Virus record (IMG/VR): IMGVR_UViG_3300032030_004230
Length of the DNA stretch: 64,000 nucleotides
Source: a virus
Taxonomy: Duplodnaviria; Caudoviricetes
Direction: 5' to 3' (one strand)
This document shows positions 15,179-36,470 of this stretch, piece after piece (position 1 is the stretch's first letter; each line of letters opens with the position of its first letter). The notes under the pieces are model-generated. The model was given only the letters and a program-made list of their open reading frames with translations. It was not told the origin of the DNA and did no database searches. Position numbers and translations under genes: made by a program.

Positions 15179-16600
15179 TTAAGATGCTTTTTCATCTGTC
15201 TCTTCATCATCAAGCTCATACTGCTGCATTCGCATACATTCAGGCTGGAACATATAAGCTCCGATCATGCCGACACGTCCTTGATTTTGCTTCATCATTC
15301 CAACTTCTACAATGTCTAGCATATCTTCCCAAAGTTCTTTTGGCAAATAAGTTTCTGCATAGTACTTCTTTCTGAAAAGATAAACTGACCAACGAGCTCG
15401 TTCAAGATATGAGTTTGAATCTTTAATGTCTGTTCTTTTTGGTCTGAACTTGTCAATGTCTTTTACATCATCAATACGACCATCTTCTGCTTTACGACCA
15501 ATCTGCAATGTACCGACCCAATGGAAACCAAGCTCTTTTGCCATTGCATTCATAATGTTTACAGCAACAGTAATTCCTTGTGCAAAGTTTGCACCTTTTG
15601 AATCTGTAATCATAAACTCACGAACCATTGAAAGCAAGTCGATGAAAAGAATAAAATACTTCTGTCCAATCTTTTTCTGGAACTTCAAAGCATCTTGACG
15701 AATCTGCTGCAATGAAACAGATGCACATTCTGAAATTTCAAGCTTTGAATTATCGATAAGCTCTTTGAATTCAGACTCAATTTTGTCTCTCAAAGAAAGC
15801 CATGCATTTGGATCTTCAGGATTTACAAATTGTGATACAGGAATTCCTGTGCGCAAAGCCATAAGACGATCTGTAGTATCAACATTTCCCATCTCAAGAG
15901 TGTAGTACAAACAAGGCACACCAGCATTTGCAAGTCCATTGATAAGATTGAGACAATAAGCTGATTTTCCCATACCTGTTGCAGCTGTAATAAGCCCGCC
16001 ATTTCCAGGATTTGGTCCGTATGTGACTGATTTGTCTAGAACTGAATCGTAAAACTTATAGCGCTTACCATTCTTACGAAGATTAAAGTCCTCAAGATAC
16101 TGTTCTTTGAGTTCTTCCATTGTAGAAGTTCTCTTTATTGAGACGCCTTCAAGCAAAAGTGACTCAGCTTCAAGCATCTTTTTACGAATAAGTTCTTCTA
16201 CAGCTTCTTCTCTACGAGGGTGCTTATTTATAAGTCCTTCAACTTCAGACATGATTTTAAGAGCTTTTTCAGAGTTCTTCATATAAAGAAGAGACTCAAC
16301 CATGTCTTTTATGTCTACATCTTTGTCTTGATTAAGAGCTGCAATCTCTGAAATTGTGTTCAAAGATACATTTACATCAATTCCGCTTGCATACTGGAAA
16401 ACTGCGAGCTCTGTGTTAGGCGTGTTCTGCTCTTTAAGATACTGAAGAGCTTTATAAATAGACTTGCTTGAACCATGAATAAAAAGCTCTTCGCTAATTC
16501 CAGGCTCATCAAGTTTCTCTGGATTTAGATAAAGCGCATTCAACAGTCTGTATTCTGAGATAAGCGCTGATGTTGATTCTGTAACTTGCTTTTCTGCCAT
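15179..16600 (-). CDS. Replicative DnaB-like (SF4) helicase
   Basis: Walker A AATGMGKS, YTLEM, FIDLL, TLQIGR, DIKDS, KQNQG. Confidence 0.88.
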   Translation of the reverse strand: MAEKQVTESTSALISEYRLLNALYLNPEKLDEPGISEELFIHGSSKSIYKALQYLKEQNTPNTELAVFQYASGIDVNVSLNTISEIAALNQDKDVDIKDMVESLLYMKNSEKALKIMSEVEGLINKHPRREEAVEELIRKKMLEAESLLLEGVSIKRTSTMEELKEQYLEDFNLRKNGKRYKFYDSVLDKSVTYGPNPGNGGLITAATGMGKSAYCLNLINGLANAGVPCLYYTLEMGNVDTTDRLMALRTGIPVSQFVNPEDPNAWLSLRDKIESEFKELIDNSKLEISECASVSLQQIRQDALKFQKKIGQKYFILFIDLLSMVREFMITDSKGANFAQGITVAVNIMNAMAKELGFHWVGTLQIGRKAEDGRIDDVKDIDKFRPKRTDIKDSNSYLERARWSVYLFRKKYYAETYLPKELWEDMLDIVEVGMMKQNQGRVGMIGAYMFQPECMRMQQYELDDEETDEKAS

Positions 16601-16629
16601 AGTGAAAAAATATTAACTCCGTAATGATA

Positions 16630-17343
16630 TTAAAACAATACAATCGGTTCAGATTGTCTATTCTGCAAATAGTTGTCTTCAAATGTGAGAAGCGTCTTAT
16701 GATTTTCTGTCTCTCTTTGCACAAAGTCTTGTATTGAATGAGAGAATCCCTGAGTTTCAATGTCTTCTGGCTTTACATTTGAGATAAAAAGAATGCCTTT
16801 ATTCTCAGACTGAATTCTTGTACGAATAAAAGAATCAATAAAACTATTCTGCCAACCAGTAGAGAACAACTTAACTTTAGATTTGTCAAATGCTTCATCA
16901 ATTACAAGTAAATCCGACTTCATCAAAAGGTCTACGTCACTTCTTGCTTCAGTGTCTCGTTCTGCTCTTTCAAGAAGTTTTATGAGGCTGTCCATTAAGA
17001 TATAACGAACTGAATACTTTTCTCTAATAAGAGACTTACCGACCCAAGATGCCATTGTAGATTTCTGACAACCATTTGGCCCATACATGTAAACTACGAG
17101 TTTCTTAACTTCTGGATTTTCTTTGAATTGCTTGACATAGTTGATAAGCCGATTCTTTGATTCTACCGACTTTGTACCCACATACTTGCGAGGATTAAAG
17201 TCATAGTTTCGCATGTCAAAGCCATAATGTTTATACAATGCTTTTGCTTGCTTTTCAAGTCTTTCTTCTTTGTGTTCAGGTTTTTCTTTGAGAACATTGT
17301 CTTCTAAATAAAAGCCATCAGGCACTTTGTAATAGTCAATCAT
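16630..17343 (-). CDS. DnaC/IstB-like AAA+ helicase loader
   Basis: Walker A-like GPNGCQKS, Walker B LLVIDE, ISN sensor; directly upstream of the helicase. Confidence 0.75.
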   Translation of the reverse strand: MIDYYKVPDGFYLEDNVLKEKPEHKEERLEKQAKALYKHYGFDMRNYDFNPRKYVGTKSVESKNRLINYVKQFKENPEVKKLVVYMYGPNGCQKSTMASWVGKSLIREKYSVRYILMDSLIKLLERAERDTEARSDVDLLMKSDLLVIDEAFDKSKVKLFSTGWQNSFIDSFIRTRIQSENKGILFISNVKPEDIETQGFSHSIQDFVQRETENHKTLLTFEDNYLQNRQSEPIVLF

Positions 17344-26910: not shown

Positions 26911-27720
26911 ATGGCTTATGAGTTTGATGTAGGCGCAGTTCATGATAAAATTATTGAGTGGACTCGTGAGTGGTTCAAAGACAAAAAAGGCCCTGCAGTT
27001 CTTGGAATTTCTGGCGGAAAAGACTCAACTGTCACTGCAGCTCTTTTAGCTGAAGCACTCGGTCCTGAAAGAGTAATTGGCGTTCAAATGCCGAATGGTG
27101 AACAGCCAGATATTACAGACAGTGACAAAGTTTTTGAAGTGCTTGGTATTCGCAAAATGACTGTAAATATCAAAGATGCATATATTGCATTAAAAGGTGC
27201 AATTGCAGTCAATTATACGGACGATGTTTCAGAAGGAAAACGCTCAAATAAATGGCCCCCACTTTTCACAACTAACACACCAGCTCGTCTTCGTATGACA
27301 ACACTTTACGGAATTGCTGCAATGGAAAATGGATTTGTTGTCAATACGTGTAATCTCAGCGAAGATGTAGTGGGATATAGCACAAAATACGGTGACTGTG
27401 CAGGTGATTTTTCCCTCTTAAACAAATTGACAAAAACTGAAGTTGTTGAGCTTGGCGATTATATGAAATTGCCGCAAGAGCTTGTTCACAAAACGCCTTC
27501 AGACGGAATGTGCGGTAAGTCTGATGAAGACAATATGGGCTTCGCTTATGAAACACTTGACAAGTGGATTCGTGACGGCCTTAGGCCCATTGCAGCTGAG
27601 ACATTTGAGAAGATTCGTAAGCTTGCAATGAATCCAAATACAAAACTAAAGATGGTTCCGATGGCAACGCCTGACATAGACTTGCCAAATTTGCTGGGGT
27701 TTGAAGTTTATGAGATTTAA
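26911..27720 (+). CDS. nadE: NH3-dependent NAD+ synthetase
   Basis: PP-loop LGISGGKDS, ARLRM, GYSTKYGD, KTPSDG, DEDNMG; no glutaminase domain. Confidence 0.93.
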   Translation: MAYEFDVGAVHDKIIEWTREWFKDKKGPAVLGISGGKDSTVTAALLAEALGPERVIGVQMPNGEQPDITDSDKVFEVLGIRKMTVNIKDAYIALKGAIAVNYTDDVSEGKRSNKWPPLFTTNTPARLRMTTLYGIAAMENGFVVNTCNLSEDVVGYSTKYGDCAGDFSLLNKLTKTEVVELGDYMKLPQELVHKTPSDGMCGKSDEDNMGFAYETLDKWIRDGLRPIAAETFEKIRKLAMNPNTKLKMVPMATPDIDLPNLLGFEVYEI

Positions 27721-27913: not shown

Positions 27914-28633
27914 ATGAGTATGGAAAGCGCAATGACTGGTATGTTTGGAGACATGTTCAGTCGTCTTGGGAAGGATTGCTGTCGCCTTGGCATCAATGGA
28001 CAGCTTGCTGTAAAGACAAGCAATGGCTACAAGACTTACGATGTAAAGACGGGCCGCCTCACAAATGTCAATCAGTTCTGTTTTGACATCGGTCAGGAGT
28101 TTTTTTTCGTAATTCCTACAACTAAGGCAAAGAAAGGTGATGTTCTTCTTGTTGATGGAAAGCCTCGCTGCGTTATTGAGAACAATGCTGACAAAGAGCT
28201 CAAAGTCATGAACTATGAAAACAGCACAATCGACACAATTGTTCCTGAGCGTCATTTCTTCATGGGTCAGATGTACTTCTACCGCAAGATCGTTTCAATG
28301 TTTGGCAGTAGCAACTTCCTCAAGAAAGGTAAGGGCATCAGCGGAATGCTTGGTATGATGTTCAAAATGAACATGCTCAAGTCTTTTATGGGCGGTGGAA
28401 GCAGCAACAACACTGGCGATACAAACAACATGCTCGGACTGATGATGATGAGCAACATGCTTGGCGGAAAAGACGGTGACAATGACCTTTCAGAAATGTT
28501 CGACTTCGATTTTGTTGAAGCAGACTTTGACCCGACTGTAATGACAGAAAATGTTGATGAAACTCCTGAAGAAAAGAAAGCCCGCCTTAAGGCAGAACTT
28601 GCTGCTCTTGAAGCTGACGAAGGCAAGAAGTAG
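27914..28633 (+). CDS. Met/Gly-rich phage protein preceding the vWA gene
   Basis: AGGAGA SD at 27901; frame is open back to 27701; GMLGMMFKMNM and GLMMMSNMLGG low-complexity segment. Confidence 0.8.
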   Translation: MSMESAMTGMFGDMFSRLGKDCCRLGINGQLAVKTSNGYKTYDVKTGRLTNVNQFCFDIGQEFFFVIPTTKAKKGDVLLVDGKPRCVIENNADKELKVMNYENSTIDTIVPERHFFMGQMYFYRKIVSMFGSSNFLKKGKGISGMLGMMFKMNMLKSFMGGGSSNNTGDTNNMLGLMMMSNMLGGKDGDNDLSEMFDFDFVEADFDPTVMTENVDETPEEKKARLKAELAALEADEGKK

Positions 28634-28680
28634 TTTCTCTGGTAGAGGCTTAAAGCCTCTATCGAATTCTTGGAGAGCTT

Positions 28681-28923
28681 ATGTGGACAATTGCAGTATA
28701 TGCTTATAAGGGTGACACAGATCCTCCTGAGTATTTATGGTCAGCAGAACGTGTTCATTTTGATATAGATGATGGTGTTGAATGGTGGAACAATGACACT
28801 AGATCATACATAGATGAGTTTGTTGAGTATGACATAGACTTACAAAACAAAGTTATCATTATCTATAAATATGACACTCCAGACAATAAGAAAAAGTCTA
28901 CAGATGAAGAGATCGTCTGGTAA
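28681..28923 (+). CDS. Hypothetical protein ending ...DEEIVW
   Basis: 80 aa, GGAG SD. Confidence 0.7.
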   Translation: MWTIAVYAYKGDTDPPEYLWSAERVHFDIDDGVEWWNNDTRSYIDEFVEYDIDLQNKVIIIYKYDTPDNKKKSTDEEIVW

Positions 28924-28965
28924 AAAGAAAAGTGCCTTATCGAAAGGGCAGAGGAGAAATAAACT

Positions 28966-29889
28966 ATGGGTGGCGGAAGTTATTCTAGCTCAGATTTTTC
29001 AAGTTATTCATATAGCCGTGGGTGTTCTTATGATGCAGTAACACATCGTGTAAGCGGTCACAAATTCACAGCATCTTCAATTGCAAAAGAGCTGAACGCA
29101 AAAGGGAAAATTCGCGAATGTTGCAATAATGATGAACATCCTAACACAGTTCCTGTTATTCTTGCATTGGACGTCACTGGTTCAATGGGAACAGCATGTG
29201 ATGAATGTGCTGCTTCAATCTCTGCTTTGATGAAAGACCTCTATGAGCAGTTCAAAGATGTTGAAGTCATGGTGATGGGCGTTGGTGATTTTGAATGTGA
29301 TGATGCTCCGCTTCAGGTATCTCAGTTTGAAAGCGATGTTCGCGTTGCAGAGCAGATGGACAAAGTTTGGCTGGAAAAAGGCGGTGGTGGAAATGGCTAT
29401 GAATCATACACAGCTCCTTGGTGGTTTGGTCTTTACAGAACTTCTTTGGACTGCTATGATAAGCAGGGCCGTAAAGGCATTATCATCACAATGGGCGATG
29501 AGCCGCTTAATCCTATTTTGAATAAGAGCGAAGTATTCGATTTCCTTGGTGAAAAAACTGACAGAGACAAGAATGCACAGTATGTTTTCCGCACGCCAGA
29601 ACTTTATGAAGCTGCTTCTAAAAAGTTTGACATCTACCATATCACTGTAAAAGATCTTCGCACAAATTACGATGGTCACAACGAGTACTATGAAGATAAA
29701 GTAGATGAGTCTTTCAAAGAAGTCATTGGCGAAGAGAATTACATTGTTTCTTCAGTTAACAGTTTGAAAAACAACATCGTAAAACTCATTGAACGCAGCT
29801 ACAAAATTCGTGAACATCTTCTTGAGGCAGAGAAGCCTGCTGAAGACAAAACAGTTAAGCATGATGAGACTGGAGCTATCGTATGGTAG
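28966..29889 (+). CDS. von Willebrand factor A (vWA) domain protein
   Basis: MIDAS DVTGSM, GGGGNGYESY, IITMGDE; N-terminus MGGGS. Confidence 0.88.
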   Translation: MGGGSYSSSDFSSYSYSRGCSYDAVTHRVSGHKFTASSIAKELNAKGKIRECCNNDEHPNTVPVILALDVTGSMGTACDECAASISALMKDLYEQFKDVEVMVMGVGDFECDDAPLQVSQFESDVRVAEQMDKVWLEKGGGGNGYESYTAPWWFGLYRTSLDCYDKQGRKGIIITMGDEPLNPILNKSEVFDFLGEKTDRDKNAQYVFRTPELYEAASKKFDIYHITVKDLRTNYDGHNEYYEDKVDESFKEVIGEENYIVSSVNSLKNNIVKLIERSYKIREHLLEAEKPAEDKTVKHDETGAIVW

Positions 29890-30236
29890 AACGCTATCGT
29901 AAAAAGCCTCTCATAGTAGAGGCAATTCATTGCACATTTGACAATAAAAACGAATGGTGGGACGACCTTGCTAAAATGTGCGAACATGTAGGTATAGAGC
30001 CGTCATTCGTAAGCAGTGAATACGCGGGAAGTGGGGCTTGGATGTCTACAAAGATTACTTTTTCAAATGGTTATGATTACAATGGCCGAGCACTTAATGC
30101 TTTAGCTCCAATTCGTGACGGCGACTATCTTGTAAAAGGTGTTGACGGTAGCATTTATCCAGTTATTAAAGAAACCTTTGAAAAAGTTTACGACAAAGTT
30201 GATGATAACAATGAGACTGGCGTAATTTCTTGGTAG
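29883..30236 (+). CDS. Common phage protein (YRKKP..VEA / GDYLVKG..YP..F.K.Y family)
   Basis: Family motif recognised; ends ...ETGVISW. Confidence 0.7.
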   Translation: MVERYRKKPLIVEAIHCTFDNKNEWWDDLAKMCEHVGIEPSFVSSEYAGSGAWMSTKITFSNGYDYNGRALNALAPIRDGDYLVKGVDGSIYPVIKETFEKVYDKVDDNNETGVISW

Positions 30237-30274
30237 CTCTTATTATATTACTATAACAGGAGACATGAAATTAT

Positions 30275-31369
30275 ATGAGCTTAGACGTTATTATAGGCGC
30301 TGGATTCGGCGACGAAGGCAAGGGTCTTACTACTGCACGAGTTGCAAAGTTTTACCATGATTATGACAACACAATTGTAGTCTTAAACAATGGCGGTGCG
30401 CAGCGTGGGCATTCAGTCAATGTAAATGGCTTTGAGCATGTCTTCAAGCATTTTGGCTCAGCTACTCCGCTAAAAGTTGAGTCTTACTTTGGTCCAAAGT
30501 ATATTCTCAATCCAATGCAGTTTGAGAAAGAATACGATGAAATTTTGAACACTTATGGCATTCACCCAATCTCATCACGTTCTTCAGACTGTATCTGGTC
30601 AACCCCTTGGGATATGATGGCAAATCAAATTCATCAGAAAGAAAAATGGACTGGCTCTTGTGGAATGGGCATTTGGGAGACAATCAAGCGTTATGTAAAG
30701 TCGGTGACAATTCCATTTGATGATTTTTGTCTTGGCTCAGAAAGCTCACAGGTAACATATCTCACAATGATACGTGACTATTATTTTGGTCAAATTGAAA
30801 AAGTGAATGTGCCTGTAGAGTACAAAGACGCTTGGTTTAGCGATGGAACTATCAAACATTTCATCGAAGACTGTATGACTATGTTGATGCGTTGTCCAGT
30901 TCGCAGAGACTTAAGTGATAAAGAACATGTCATTATTGAGAATGGACAGGGAATGCTTTTACGTGATGACGGCAAAGATGATGTTGAGAAAACTCCGTCA
31001 GAAACTGGAATTTATACGCTGTTCGGAATTGATAAAAACCTCATGGCTGAAAGTCCAGTAGTTCATTTTGTTACCAGACCTTATCTAACTCGTCATGGCT
31101 CAGCAAATTGGGAAAACAACAAGAAGCCTCATGACTATGTTGATGCGTCTGTCGAGATAAATCAATATAACGAATTTCAGCATGAACTGTGCTATGCTCA
31201 CCTTAATATTGAGGATTTGAAGAACAGATGTGATGCTGAAGTTAGTAAAGTTGGTTTGAAAAATTACGTTGTTGAAGTTACGCACTGTGATGAGTTGGAT
31301 GCATCTTCAGAATTTAAACGAGTTTTCAAAGATTCAAAAGTACGATTTTATGACACGAGGTATTTGTAA
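30275..31369 (+). CDS. Divergent adenylosuccinate-synthetase (PurA)-like ligase
   Basis: GAGFGDEGKG, GGAQRGH, GSCGMGI, ENGQG, YLTRHG; lacks the TTGRxRR aspartate loop; own TATTATATTA motif at 30241. Confidence 0.85.
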   Translation: MSLDVIIGAGFGDEGKGLTTARVAKFYHDYDNTIVVLNNGGAQRGHSVNVNGFEHVFKHFGSATPLKVESYFGPKYILNPMQFEKEYDEILNTYGIHPISSRSSDCIWSTPWDMMANQIHQKEKWTGSCGMGIWETIKRYVKSVTIPFDDFCLGSESSQVTYLTMIRDYYFGQIEKVNVPVEYKDAWFSDGTIKHFIEDCMTMLMRCPVRRDLSDKEHVIIENGQGMLLRDDGKDDVEKTPSETGIYTLFGIDKNLMAESPVVHFVTRPYLTRHGSANWENNKKPHDYVDASVEINQYNEFQHELCYAHLNIEDLKNRCDAEVSKVGLKNYVVEVTHCDELDASSEFKRVFKDSKVRFYDTRYL

Positions 31370-33010: not shown

Positions 33011-34543
33011 ATGGCTAAAAACATAAAAAATGAGCTGATTGACAAAGTATTAGAACCAATTCACGAAGCTGGCTTTACTGTTGCTTTTGTTGGCGGTTGT
33101 GTTCGTGACAAACTGATGAATATCAAACCTCATGATTTCGACATCGCAACTGATGCAACTCCTGAAGAACTTCATAAAATCTTTAACAAATTTTCAAAAG
33201 TCTCAAAAAACAGTGAGCCTTTTGGCGTAACAATGCCTTTGATTGAATTTGATGACGGGACTGCTGAAGAAGTTGAAATTGCAACTTTCAGAAAAGACAT
33301 TACAAAAGGTCGACATCCAAAAATTGAGTTTACACGCTCAATTGAAGAAGATGCAGCTCGCCGTGATTTTACAGTAAATGCTTTGTATGAAGACATGTTT
33401 GGAAATATCATTGACCCTACAGGTCAGGGCAAAGATGACATTCGAATAAATGCATTGCGTTTCATTGGGAATGCTCAGGACCGCATTTCTGAAGACCCAT
33501 TACGAATCTTCAGATTTGTTCGATTCTTAGCTTCAAAAGGCTTTATGTCAGCTCATAGCGCAAAAGAAGCTTTAGAGTGGAAAGCCGATTTTGCAGATGT
33601 CTCAAAAGAGCGTGTTTTGAAAGAGCTGGAGAAAACATTTGGCGGAAAGTTTCTATTTGAGACTGCATTTGGCTTGACTCCGTTTGACTTTTTCATAGCT
33701 TGTCGTATTGATGAGAAAGTCGGTATGCGTCCGCTAATAGTTGATATGTCAAATATCGAGCAGTCTTGGATGTGGCATGCAGAGGGCTCTTTGTGGTGGT
33801 TGGACAGTGGCGAGTCAGTCGCTGCTGAAAGCATTACAGACTTTTCCAAAGCTACACCAAAGACTCATGGCAGTGCATGGGACCACACTTTGCGAGTTAT
33901 GAAATTGATGAGCAAAGAAACGCAGAATGATCCAGACGAGCATCACAGATTTGTCTTGATGATGGCTGCATTCTTGCATGATATTGGCAAAGCTCATTCA
34001 GATCTTGGAGTTAAGACTAATCACTTAGTTTTTAATGGAAAAGAGATTGTCGAGACAATTCCGAAAGTGTCTGACCACGATAAAGTGGGTGCACCAATTG
34101 CAGAACAGTTTTGTAAAGACATTGGAATGACAAATAAGGATGCTAGACTTGTATTCCGCTTGGTTGCAAATCATATGAATGCACATAAACTCGCAGACAT
34201 GAAAAAGAGGTCTTCTATTTGGAGGCTCGTGTCTCAGAAGTTTTTTAAAGATTTGGTGAAGCTTGCTAGATGTGATGAGAACGGTTGTATCAAGACTACA
34301 GATGACAAGTGGTGTGGTATTGACAATGCTTTGAAGTTACAGAAAGTTGCAGATGTTCTTGGAAAGCCAATGCCAAAGCCTATTGTAACAGGCGATGACT
34401 TGATTGCAGCTGGACTGAAACCAGATAGCTCATTCAAGAAAAGACTTGATGTTGCATACAATTTGCAGATTGATCAAGGCTTAACAGATAAAGCTAAACT
34501 TATCAAGCATGCAAAAGGTATGACATTGCCTAAAAGCTTGTAA
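33011..34543 (+). CDS. cca: tRNA nucleotidyltransferase (class II CCA-adding enzyme) with HD domain
   Basis: VGGCVRD, DFDIAT, RRDFTVNAL, EDPLRIFR, HDIGK, C-terminal TGDDL. Confidence 0.9.
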   Translation: MAKNIKNELIDKVLEPIHEAGFTVAFVGGCVRDKLMNIKPHDFDIATDATPEELHKIFNKFSKVSKNSEPFGVTMPLIEFDDGTAEEVEIATFRKDITKGRHPKIEFTRSIEEDAARRDFTVNALYEDMFGNIIDPTGQGKDDIRINALRFIGNAQDRISEDPLRIFRFVRFLASKGFMSAHSAKEALEWKADFADVSKERVLKELEKTFGGKFLFETAFGLTPFDFFIACRIDEKVGMRPLIVDMSNIEQSWMWHAEGSLWWLDSGESVAAESITDFSKATPKTHGSAWDHTLRVMKLMSKETQNDPDEHHRFVLMMAAFLHDIGKAHSDLGVKTNHLVFNGKEIVETIPKVSDHDKVGAPIAEQFCKDIGMTNKDARLVFRLVANHMNAHKLADMKKRSSIWRLVSQKFFKDLVKLARCDENGCIKTTDDKWCGIDNALKLQKVADVLGKPMPKPIVTGDDLIAAGLKPDSSFKKRLDVAYNLQIDQGLTDKAKLIKHAKGMTLPKSL

Positions 34544-35072
34544 GCTCAACTCTTCTTTTTAGAGTGGGCCGATCTTTGTCATTAATTTCAATCACTTTAG
34601 TGACTTTGTATCGGCCATCTAGTATGACTTCTTGCTGCCATCTGTAATCAGAGTCAGACCACTGACTTGTAATGTCATAAACACTGTCTGGAATTTTCCA
34701 ACCTTCAGCATTATGGAAGACCATTTCACAGATGTCAGCGTCAGAGTTTTGCGAAGTGAATACAGTAATTTTGTCAACAAAGCTATCATAGTTTTCTTTG
34801 CTGAGAAATTGCAAAATTGAGGAAGAGCAAGGTGTTGCAGAGAATATGTCACCCTCTTTTAAAGACCAGACATTGTTTTCTTTGTAGTAGTCGTCCCATG
34901 GACGTGCTACATAACGGTACAATACATTAAAATTTTCTTTGAAGCAGCTTGCAGCTTTCAGTAGTTTGTAAGAGATTCTACTAGTGCACACCCAGTCTTC
35001 AAGAGATTTAAGATAGTCTTCTTTAAGAGACTCCTTGACTGATTCTTCAATAAGCTCATTAGATGCTTCCAT
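34530..35072 (-). CDS. Putative mono-ADP-ribosyltransferase (R-S-E clade, VIP2/C3/Mod-like)
   Basis: LYR strand, LKEGDIF, Ser-rich strand, ARTT-like Y-R-W-Q-Q-E followed by VIL..YKV; ACTAAT-N5-ATG motif upstream. Confidence 0.6.
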   Translation of the reverse strand: MEASNELIEESVKESLKEDYLKSLEDWVCTSRISYKLLKAASCFKENFNVLYRYVARPWDDYYKENNVWSLKEGDIFSATPCSSSILQFLSKENYDSFVDKITVFTSQNSDADICEMVFHNAEGWKIPDSVYDITSQWSDSDYRWQQEVILDGRYKVTKVIEINDKDRPTLKRRVELTSF

Positions 35073-35168: not shown

Positions 35169-36470
35169 ATGTGGGAAATCAATGGAAAGAGAACTTCTGA
35201 TGAAGCAGAAGTAATGAAAGCGTTTGGCCTTAAATATCCGCCAATGGTAAAGAGTCTTGATGACACCGACCTTTATAAGGGCAGCATGGGTCAGACATAC
35301 CATCATCAATTCGGTAATTTGAAGACAACTTGGGACTTCTGTGCCCGCAATGTTGGACTTAACTCAAAGCATCCTGAAAAATACACAAAAGAAGACATCA
35401 CAGAAATCAAAAATCAGCTGCGTGCATATTGCGCACTTCGTTTTGAAGACGAAGAACTTGACTATCTTCGCAACAAATGTCCTTGGATTAAAACAGACTA
35501 TCTCAACTTCTTGAAGTTCTGGCATCCAGTCTTTGAAGACTTCACAGTCGAAGAAGATGAAAAGACAGGCATTAAGCTCTCATTTGCTGGCGTGCAGGAA
35601 TATGTAGAGTACTACGAAATTCCTGTTCTTGAAATCTGTGCAGAAACATACTACCGCAATCATTACAACTATGATAAGCTTCTTGCAAACTACAAGAAAC
35701 TCACTGAAGAAAAAATTGCCAAAATGAAAGAAGGTGACTATCACTTTGGAGCATGGTCAGAGTTTGGAGCTCGCCGCCGCCTTTCTTATGAAGCACAGGA
35801 ATGGTTGATTGGCCGCCTTGCTGAAGAGAAGAGATACACTGGTCCTTTCTATGGTTTCATTGGAACTTCAAATATCCGCCTTGCCCGCATGTTCAACGTA
35901 ACACCTGTTGGAACTTGTGCACATGAGTTTATCGAGTGTGTTGGACAGGGTGATCCTTCACTTAATCCTGCTTACAGCAACAAGTTCGCAATGGAAGCTT
36001 GGATTAAAGAATACGGAGTTTGGAATGGTATTTGGTTGACTGATACAATTGGTGATGAACTTTGCCGCCGTGACATGCAGAAAACATATGCAACATTGTT
36101 CAGCGGAGTTCGTAATGACTCTGGTGACCCGTTTGTTTGGGCAGACAATTGGATTGAGCACTTCAAATCACTTGGAATTGACCCGAAAACAAAGACACTT
36201 TTGTTCAGTAACAGCATCAACAGTCTTGAACTGTGGGATAAACTTTGCCGCCATGTTGAAGGTCGCGCAAAACCTGCGTTTGGAATTGGTACATACTGGT
36301 CAGGTCCTCAGGACATCGACCCTCTCAACATTGTTGCAAAAGTCGTTCTGGTAAATGGAATGGATGTTGCAAAGTTGAGCGACGATGCTGGTAAAACAAT
36401 GAGCCGCAGCGCTGAGTACGTTGACTACCTCAAACGTGCGCTTGATTGGCGCTTGAAGAGCGGAAAATAA
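35169..36470 (+). CDS. pncB: Nicotinate phosphoribosyltransferase
   Basis: DTDLYK, EFGARRR, GTSN, GTCAHEF, LTDT, RNDSGDP, FGIGT, LNIV, KLSD..GK (PncB-type, not Nampt-type). Confidence 0.92.
   Translation: MWEINGKRTSDEAEVMKAFGLKYPPMVKSLDDTDLYKGSMGQTYHHQFGNLKTTWDFCARNVGLNSKHPEKYTKEDITEIKNQLRAYCALRFEDEELDYLRNKCPWIKTDYLNFLKFWHPVFEDFTVEEDEKTGIKLSFAGVQEYVEYYEIPVLEICAETYYRNHYNYDKLLANYKKLTEEKIAKMKEGDYHFGAWSEFGARRRLSYEAQEWLIGRLAEEKRYTGPFYGFIGTSNIRLARMFNVTPVGTCAHEFIECVGQGDPSLNPAYSNKFAMEAWIKEYGVWNGIWLTDTIGDELCRRDMQKTYATLFSGVRNDSGDPFVWADNWIEHFKSLGIDPKTKTLLFSNSINSLELWDKLCRHVEGRAKPAFGIGTYWSGPQDIDPLNIVAKVVLVNGMDVAKLSDDAGKTMSRSAEYVDYLKRALDWRLKSGK

Follow-up and report, generated by a model that had tools for sequence, protein, structure and literature searches.

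A widespread cassette of phages and bacteria joins a vWA-fold protein to a PurA-fold enzyme without the aspartate loop

The window analysed here is a 64-kb stretch (64,000 nucleotides; IMG/VR record IMGVR_UViG_3300032030_004230) from a large phage, whose genome spans at least 326 kb according to the contig that bears the protein cluster of the PurA-like enzyme described below. Five co-directional open reading frames (ORFs) on the + strand fill positions 27914-31369, with gaps of 47, 42, -7 and 38 bp. A sequence-only reading had placed in this interval a protein rich in methionine and glycine, a vWA protein beginning MGGGS and a 364-residue PurA homologue, and all three are found there, on the + strand. 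This interval is one copy of a mobile, undescribed operon with the order X, vWA, PurA-like, into which two small accessory genes have been inserted. The cassette is real and widespread, and it is built on a re-tooled PurA-fold enzyme. A literature search that included the jumbo-phage, NAD and ADP-ribose comparative-genomics and PurZ papers returned no description of the PurA-like/vWA pair, and the PADLOC models matched no member of the cassette. Its genes in the window are as follows.

27914..28633, + strand: protein X, first gene of the cassette; 239 amino acids, rich in methionine and glycine
28681..28923, + strand: predicted accessory ORF of 80 amino acids; tail D-E-E-I-V-W, of the same type as that of the vWA protein
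28966..29889, + strand: vWA-fold protein with a metal-ion-dependent adhesion site (MIDAS); 307 amino acids, start MGGGSYS, C-terminus G-A-I-V-W; PHROG 2971 at 1.7e-45
29883..30236, + strand: accessory protein of 117 amino acids, tail E-T-G-V-I-S-W; phrog_419 at 9.5e-15; lies between the vWA and PurA-like genes
30275..31369, + strand: PurA-like ligase of the adenylosuccinate-synthetase fold; 364 amino acids, with neither the aspartate loop nor the last ~90 residues of PurA

The PurA-like protein matches PF00709 with 55.8 bits (cut-off 27), spanning just profile positions 1-271 of 416, and matches PHROG 1211, labelled PurZ, at 6e-26. Its matches to PDB sequences are weak (best E 1e-4). The scores stay far below the NCBIfam cut-offs: 38.7 bits against 395.55 for TIGR00184, the purA equivalog, 36.6 against 402 for NF002223, and 15.7 against 300 for NF038379 (PurZ). 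An AlphaFold model built with 54 homologues has a predicted local distance difference test score (pLDDT) of 87, and Foldseek ranks bacterial and eukaryotic PurA structures first against it (E 1e-16 to 1e-12, template-modelling (TM) score 0.6-0.7); for the bacterial structures E is about 1e-15 to 1e-16 and the TM score 0.64-0.69. PurZ0, archaeal PurA and PurZ are placed below these, with a root-mean-square deviation (RMSD) above 7 Å.

We mapped residues onto Escherichia coli PurA with MAFFT and with hhalign (probability 97.4). The motifs GDEGKG, G-H, E-N-G-Q-G and Y-L-T-R-H-G are all present. Across the 54 homologues D13, K16, the catalytic histidine H46 and Q225 are invariant, and these correspond to Asp13, Lys16, His41 and Gln224 of the E. 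coli enzyme; the equivalents of the 5′-phosphate ligands Arg143 and Thr239 are likewise invariant in the family. The fold, the P-loop Asp, the catalytic His, the Gln of E-x-x-Q-G and the Arg143/Thr239 equivalents are thus common to the PurA-like protein and PurA (EC 6.3.4.4; E. coli structures 1CG1 and 1ADE). Other positions have changed, with Gln replacing Asn38, Cys replacing Thr129 (within S-C-G-M-G-I-W), T-H-C-D replacing T-K-L-D and T-R-H-G replacing T-R-V-G. Among the elements of guanine specificity, T-H-C-D retains the Asp and not the Lys, the C-terminal S-x-G-P segment is absent, and the motif is variable in the Vibrio and Rhizobium phage homologues.

The aspartate site is where the two proteins part. 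PurA carries an aspartate loop, G-A-T-T-G-R-R-R-R (Thr300, Thr301, Arg303, Arg305), whereas the PurA-like protein has no such site. Both alignments delete A299-T300-T301-G302 and set variable or hydrophobic residues, never Arg, against R303 and R305. The corresponding region of the window reads E-I-N-Q-Y-N-E-F-Q-H-E-L-C-Y, and the loop that replaces it has the consensus N-x-Y-N-E-F-Q-x-x-F-R-Y-G-x-L-D (N-Q-Y-N-E-F-Q-H-E-L-C-Y-A-H-L-N in the window) and is modelled with the lowest confidence of the whole protein (pLDDT 55-60). The PurA-like protein also lacks ~90 residues that PurA has at its C-terminus. Further, the PurA-like gene is paired with a vWA gene and stands outside any purine operon, unlike purA.

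The catalytic histidine region is marked in another way. In two metagenomic homologues (P0241 and P0242; 822 and 840 amino acids) a LAGLIDADG intein sits directly after the catalytic-His motif N-G-G-A-Q-R-G-H. Inteins typically occupy functionally critical sites, and the position of this one fits a functionally critical catalytic motif. We looked for fused versions of the enzyme, and these two with inteins were all that turned up, with no informative domain fusion. We also searched the 64-kb window by tblastn and found no homologue of purB, PurZ, DatZ or DpoZ (nothing better than E ~1 for the last two); phiVC8 PurZ gave no match on the PurA-like gene even at E up to 10.

These results bear on four statements of the sequence-only reading: that the activating motifs are kept, that the aspartate-binding region is replaced, that purB is missing from the window, and that the enzyme is neither PurA nor PurZ. 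The motif survey agrees with the first, MAFFT and hhalign with the second and tblastn with the third. The fourth stands as well, given a catalytic core that is kept, an aspartate site that is removed and scores far below the cut-offs, and an ordinary PurA identity is very improbable. The family appears to form a third branch within the PurA superfamily, so far uncharacterised, whose acceptor is a different one.

The vWA protein is recognisable mainly by structure. It has no Pfam vWA match (E<=0.01) and no relevant NCBIfam match, and a profile search of PDB sequences gave chance matches only. Foldseek gave a probability of 1.0 to matches between its AlphaFold model (pLDDT 80) and integrin I, beta-I and vWF-A domains (453 matches in all had E<1e-3), and isolated domains, vWF-A1 included, aligned with a TM score of up to 0.63. 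The MIDAS residues D69-x-T71-x-S73 (D69-V-T71-G-S73, with Thr in place of the first Ser) and D178 are invariant among 44 homologues, and T149 is kept in at least 90% of them. The MIDAS is a putative metal site. In most of the bacterial and metagenome-assembled genome (MAG) homologues listed, the motif stands at a constant distance from the N-terminus. That terminus (M1, G2, G4, an aromatic residue at 6 and 11, Y14) is conserved as strongly as the MIDAS itself, and homologues from phages of Vibrio, Rhizobium and Mycobacterium likewise start M-G-x-G-x-[WFY], as do most bacterial ones, those of Alphaproteobacteria included. At the other end, the C-terminal tryptophan (W307) is invariant within the subfamily of the window's protein (the same 44 homologues).

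The sequence-only reading had proposed a survey of neighbourhood conservation, and in that survey the genes proved strongly co-conserved. Among IMG/VR loci fetched with the enzyme, 79/80 carry the vWA gene; of those fetched with the vWA gene, 76/77 carry the enzyme, the exception being a contig end. In viral loci the vWA gene is always upstream on the same strand, directly adjacent in most and with a median gap to the enzyme of 13 bp. Bacterial and MAG loci show the same arrangement in 76/80 cases, and the other four contigs begin within the enzyme gene or shortly ahead of it. In GenBank phages each protein matches 219 records of the same clades (Mycobacterium 201, Rhizobium 10, Vibrio 6, Bacteriophage sp. 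1, Mycolicibacterium 1); a faecal phage is among the records. We examined three of the GenBank records, and in these the two genes are no more than ~0.5 kb apart: they adjoin in Va1 (Vibrio) and TM30 (Rhizobium) and flank a single small ORF in MoMoMixon. The two genes are often translationally coupled. Linkage between the enzyme and the vWA protein is essentially obligate, so that one of the conditions which the sequence-only reading had named for its own refutation, a lack of co-conservation, does not hold. Clustering of the neighbours across 115 non-redundant viral and 76 bacterial loci brought out a third member, protein X, and no other conserved neighbour.

Protein X heads the cassette: in 107/115 of these viral loci its gene immediately precedes that of the vWA protein, with a median gap of 2 bp. 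Its start near 27914 is backed by an alignment of 102 homologues. The protein consists of a beta-rich N-terminal domain, a low-complexity stretch rich in Met and Gly, and an acidic tail, F-x-x-M-F-D-F-D; Met makes up 9% and Gly 10% of the whole, and the two together 34% of one 70-residue stretch. Searches of Pfam, PHROG, NCBIfam and PADLOC and two of the ESM Atlas gave no match to it. In the Vibrio phage Va1 and in TM30 of Rhizobium, the gene ahead of vWA is a strongly divergent X-like ORF that encodes a beta domain followed by a tract rich in Met and Gly. The Va1 ORF, 237 amino acids long and with an extremely Met- and Gly-rich tract, is unannotated and lies in a gap of the deposited annotation (L001:3237-3950; MK387337.2, about 15946-16659).

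Other lineages have a different protein in this place. A J-domain protein stands there in 20 bacterial loci (PF00226, 1e-8) and in one viral locus, L072 (1.4e-6), and in MoMoMixon the position is taken by gp256, which has a protein-kinase match and a weak DnaJ match. The C-terminus of the vWA protein follows this division: a terminal Trp is present in 131/131 non-redundant loci with X and in 0/39 with a J-domain protein or no recognised partner. The vWA proteins of the J type often end instead in G-G-[IV]-x-[RK]-[FL].

The same tail recurs on other proteins. Small proteins of 80-146 amino acids ending in [acidic/G]-x-I-x-W or G-x-I-x-W cluster inside or beside the cassette, and the 80- and 117-residue products in the window belong to them. 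The former has no Pfam or PHROG family match; homologues of the latter, with G-x-I-T-W tails, occupy the same position in loci L006, L035, L041 and others. Between the vWA and enzyme genes of four loci, two or three tailed small proteins stand in a row, three of them in L035:

L006:7227-7897, tailed small proteins
L035:7041-7989, three tailed small proteins
L041:7234-7979, tailed small proteins
L007:7267-7997, tailed small proteins

The shared I-x-W tail suggests a common docking site. On the vWA protein, the C-terminal tail would then be a docking peptide for X, whose methionine-rich tract would suit the binding of a hydrophobic peptide, and the X module and the J-domain module may be alternative chaperone-like adaptors. 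The conservation of X, its exchange for a J-domain or kinase-like protein and the I-x-W tail all go beyond the sequence-only reading.

The surroundings of the cassette point towards metabolism of nicotinamide adenine dinucleotide (NAD). An NrtR-type regulator (NUDIX plus winged helix PF21906, 7e-17) lies directly beside it on the same strand in 14 bacterial or MAG loci, in assemblies labelled Lachnospiraceae and other Clostridia; NrtR is an ADP-ribose-sensing NAD regulator. Near viral copies (115 non-redundant loci) we counted NadE 13 times, PncB 8, a PncA-like isochorismatase 7 and NAMPT 5. In the window the nadE gene ends 193 bp upstream of protein X, and a CCA-adding enzyme follows the cassette, then pncB-type and nadD-like genes. 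The NAD-related context genes of the window are these.

26911..27720, + strand: nadE, NH3-dependent NAD synthetase; PF02540 1.6e-46; context gene outside the conserved cassette
35169..36470, + strand: pncB-type nicotinate phosphoribosyltransferase (context); PF04095 1.1e-45, PF17767
37853..38404, + strand: nadD-like gene of the cytidylyltransferase fold (context); PF01467 1.6e-17

Together these three resemble a phage-borne Preiss-Handler route to NAD. Between the cca and pncB genes lies an antisense ORF of 180 amino acids (34530-35072, - strand) with no PADLOC match.

The explanation we favour, at a probability of roughly 0.55, is that the X, vWA and PurA-like operon encodes an active non-aspartate ligase that acts with its vWA partner in a setting of NAD and ADP-ribose. 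The PurA-like protein would be an active, probably dimeric ligase dependent on a nucleoside triphosphate (NTP), as predicted from PurA. It would bind a purine nucleoside 5′-monophosphate, most likely a 6-oxopurine such as inosine monophosphate (IMP), and phosphorylate the oxygen of the ring carbonyl; an amine would then displace the phosphate. We infer activity on the carbonyl of a purine nucleotide because the catalytic and monophosphate-binding residues are retained. The amine is predicted to be other than aspartate, and the product other than adenylosuccinate, because the aspartate pocket is removed and a conserved N-x-x-N-x-x-Q/aromatic loop stands instead. Since the vWA partner is obligate and often translationally coupled, enzyme and vWA protein probably act as a complex, with the ligase functional only jointly with the MIDAS protein. 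The G-x-I-x-W tail of the vWA protein would dock onto the Met-rich adaptor X, or in other lineages a J-domain or kinase-like protein would serve instead. Finally, because NrtR adjoins bacterial copies and nadE, pncB and nadD surround the copy in the window, the cassette may act when NAD+ is broken down or ADP-ribose stress sets in, for example in phage-host conflict over NAD+.

Phage NAD+ reconstitution pathways (NARPs) offer one comparison for this setting; NARP1 consists of Adps and Namat, and NARP2 of Nampt and Nmnat. The likeness is that of a phage-borne gene set among NAD-salvage genes, with bacterial copies of the cassette adjoining NrtR. The difference is that the cassette holds no NARP enzyme, and no NAD-forming reaction is assignable to the PurA-like ligase.

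Several points weigh against the favoured explanation. The substrate, the NTP, the nucleophile and the product would all be carried over from PurA by analogy. The association with NAD genes in phages is partial, reaching about a quarter of loci at most, while dUTPase, NrdD and guanylate kinase (Gmk) are equally common neighbours and RNA-repair genes occur about as often; it could merely reflect clustering of auxiliary genes of nucleotide metabolism. The only common basic residue of the replacement loop is Cys in the window (L-C-Y-A against the consensus F-R-Y-G). The Cys of SCGMGIW and the T-H-C-D motif are conserved in the gut-phage subfamily and variable in the homologues from phages of Vibrio, Rhizobium and Mycobacterium, so that different clades may act on different substrates. 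The counts for tail and X covariation lack phylogenetic independence, although the split itself has no exceptions.

The best-surviving alternative, which we regard as possible though clearly less likely, keeps the chemistry small. Here a 6-oxopurine nucleotide would be aminated with ammonia or a small amine, or turned into an unusual N6-substituted nucleotide, either to restore adenylate and NAD pools or to produce or remove a nucleotide that serves as a signal, with the vWA protein and X in a regulatory or scaffolding role. The retained catalytic core and 5′-phosphate ligands would serve such a reaction, and the NAD-salvage and NrtR context agrees with it. PurA uses a small amine as its substrate. 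The same holds for PurZ (PMC12884076), and hence for all characterised members of the superfamily. However, this explanation leaves the obligatory vWA partner unaccounted for and can name no candidate amine, and the cassette has no glutaminase or ammonia-channel domain and no conserved downstream gene to process the product.

A small-amine product with a vWA/X scaffold is about as likely as the first hypothesis of the sequence-only reading, which is possible but improbable. In that hypothesis, removal of Met leaves Gly2 of the vWA protein with a free alpha-amine that acts as the acceptor, so that an N6-linked nucleotide of the adenosine monophosphate (AMP) type would be formed on the N-terminus. 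The pattern M-G-x-G-x-[WFY]-x4-[FYW]-x2-Y is kept across phage and bacterial clades that are less than 30% identical elsewhere, residues 1-4 are flexible in the model (pLDDT <50), the pocket for a small-molecule amine is ablated in the PurA-like protein, and the two genes are obligately linked and frequently coupled in translation. By the specificity of methionine aminopeptidase, Gly or Ser at position 2 is compatible with Met excision, and the vWA protein allows it in this respect. Against these stand a flat and uninformative profile of mutual information between vWA positions 3, 5 and 6 and the enzyme columns (maximum 0.44, with many values of 0.37-0.41, and confounded by phylogeny) and the few homologues that begin M-S-K-G or M-G-S-S. 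The conserved terminus could equally serve as a docking peptide, and the hypothesis gives no account of X, the J-domain protein or the MIDAS.

Conjugation to a partner's N-terminus has a precedent in concept. The QueC-family enzymes Cap9 and QatC conjugate a 7-deazaguanine base to the N-terminus of a partner, in the type IV cyclic-oligonucleotide-based antiphage signalling system (CBASS) and in QatABCD. The likeness is that a ligase of nucleotide metabolism stands beside a partner with a conserved M-G N-terminus. The difference is that QueC belongs to an unrelated ligase superfamily and that the partner there resembles tRNA-guanine transglycosylase (TGT), whereas no TGT-like neighbour was found among the neighbours of the viral and bacterial loci, and the conjugate here is hypothetical. 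In the window only NadE matches QueC, and that weakly.

A wider form of this idea, which we offer as a speculation and hold somewhat less probable still, would make the PurA-like enzyme a "purinylase". It would join IMP or a related 6-oxopurine nucleotide, activated by guanosine triphosphate (GTP), through C6 to the N-terminal Gly amine of the vWA protein or to tail-tagged clients brought by X, giving a protein-N6-AMP conjugate in a phage-host conflict linked to NAD and ADP-ribose. If true, purinylation would be a post-translational modification, and a use of the PurA fold, that were both previously unknown.

An unlikely further alternative treats the PurA-like protein as a switch in place of an enzyme. 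A P-loop chaperone or switch, with a vWA adaptor and X or a J-domain partner to recruit chaperones, would remodel a client as MoxR-vWA pairs do. PurA falls in the enzyme branch of its P-loop class, a placement that speaks against this, and the invariance of the Asp13, catalytic His, Gln224 and Arg143/Thr239 equivalents would be needless in a pure switch. The pairing of a vWA adaptor with a P-loop NTPase does recall the MoxR-vWA systems, of which a jumbo-phage pair has been noted (PMC7824862), and the alternative partner has a J domain and the docking tails are conserved. In the AAA+/vWA pairs of MoxR type (RavA-ViaA, CbbQ-CbbO), too, a gene for a MIDAS-bearing vWA protein adjoins that of a P-loop NTPase, and both kinds of system are linked to a chaperone-recruiting module, here the J domain of some lineages. 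Yet MoxR is an AAA+ ring, whereas the NTPase of the cassette is a ligase of the PurA fold whose catalytic site is intact, and no AAA+ or MoxR gene was found among the conserved neighbours in the 115 viral or 76 bacterial loci.

The second hypothesis of the sequence-only reading, re-amination by the enzyme of inosine nucleotides made by deaminase defences such as RADAR, found no support, and we consider it very improbable. Its chemistry alone speaks for it, as a core that activates 6-oxopurines in a phage. The window has no purB, no amide-donor domain is present, the hypothesis accounts for neither the vWA nor the X partner and we saw no PADLOC or defence linkage. The context is one of NAD and ADP-ribose genes and NrtR, not of deaminase defence; the cassette also occurs on Mb-sized contigs of bacterial assemblies beside NrtR (possibly prophage), a poor fit to counter-defence confined to phages.

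The database labels themselves would make the protein a divergent but ordinary PurA or the 2-aminoadenine enzyme PurZ, which is the least probable reading of all: it has the PF00709 and PHROG 1211 matches and the GenBank names "adenylosuccinate synthetase" and "2-aminooxy adenylosuccinate synthetase" on its side, but the scores lie far under the equivalog cut-offs, the aspartate loop is absent, Asp13 is kept where phiVC8 PurZ has Ser, and tblastn found neither phiVC8 PurZ on the gene nor DatZ, DpoZ or purB in the window. PurZ (N6-succino-2-amino-2′-deoxyadenylate synthase of Z-genome phages; NF038379; 6FM1, 7ODX) is likewise phage-encoded and a short-form member of the PurA superfamily. Its P-loop in phiVC8, the sole PurZ sequence compared, reads G-S-T-G-K-G against G-D-E-G-K-G in the window, and its structures are less similar to the model than bacterial PurA (Foldseek E 1e-9 to 1e-11, RMSD >7 Å). 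PurZ still condenses aspartate with deoxyguanosine monophosphate, unlike the reaction predicted for the PurA-like protein. A role in Z-genome or other DNA hypermodification was set aside, since there is no companion gene and the cassette is found beside NrtR on those bacterial contigs as well.

The labels "adenylosuccinate synthetase" and "PurZ" on the PurA-like gene are thus almost certainly wrong. The mislabelled gene is present in hundreds of phage genomes, including about 200 cluster C mycobacteriophages, which are easily manipulated, and the cassette is spread over large phages and over bacterial and MAG assemblies labelled as several phyla, in some of them beside NrtR. Identifying the product would correct a widespread annotation error and add a new nucleotide-ligation reaction, possibly a new protein modification or a metabolite in the contest between phages and bacterial immunity over NAD+. 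With Bxz1-type mycobacteriophages, Vibrio phage Va1 and Rhizobium phage TM30 as cultivable carriers, the question is directly testable.

Some neighbours of the cassette deserve mention in their own right. In Rhizobium phage TM30 a ComF-like phosphoribosyltransferase and a NUDIX gene lie just upstream of it, and gp013 (L002:667-1230), annotated as a cytidyltransferase, gives only NUDIX in Pfam (7.8e-8). Some 2 kb beyond the PurA-like gene, on its downstream side, 14 viral loci encode a DUF2828/DUF7788 protein of 531 amino acids, L050:10201-11796 among them. In six loci labelled Lachnospiraceae, including L199:3729-5759, a protein of ~670 amino acids with a class I methyltransferase domain comes directly after NrtR.

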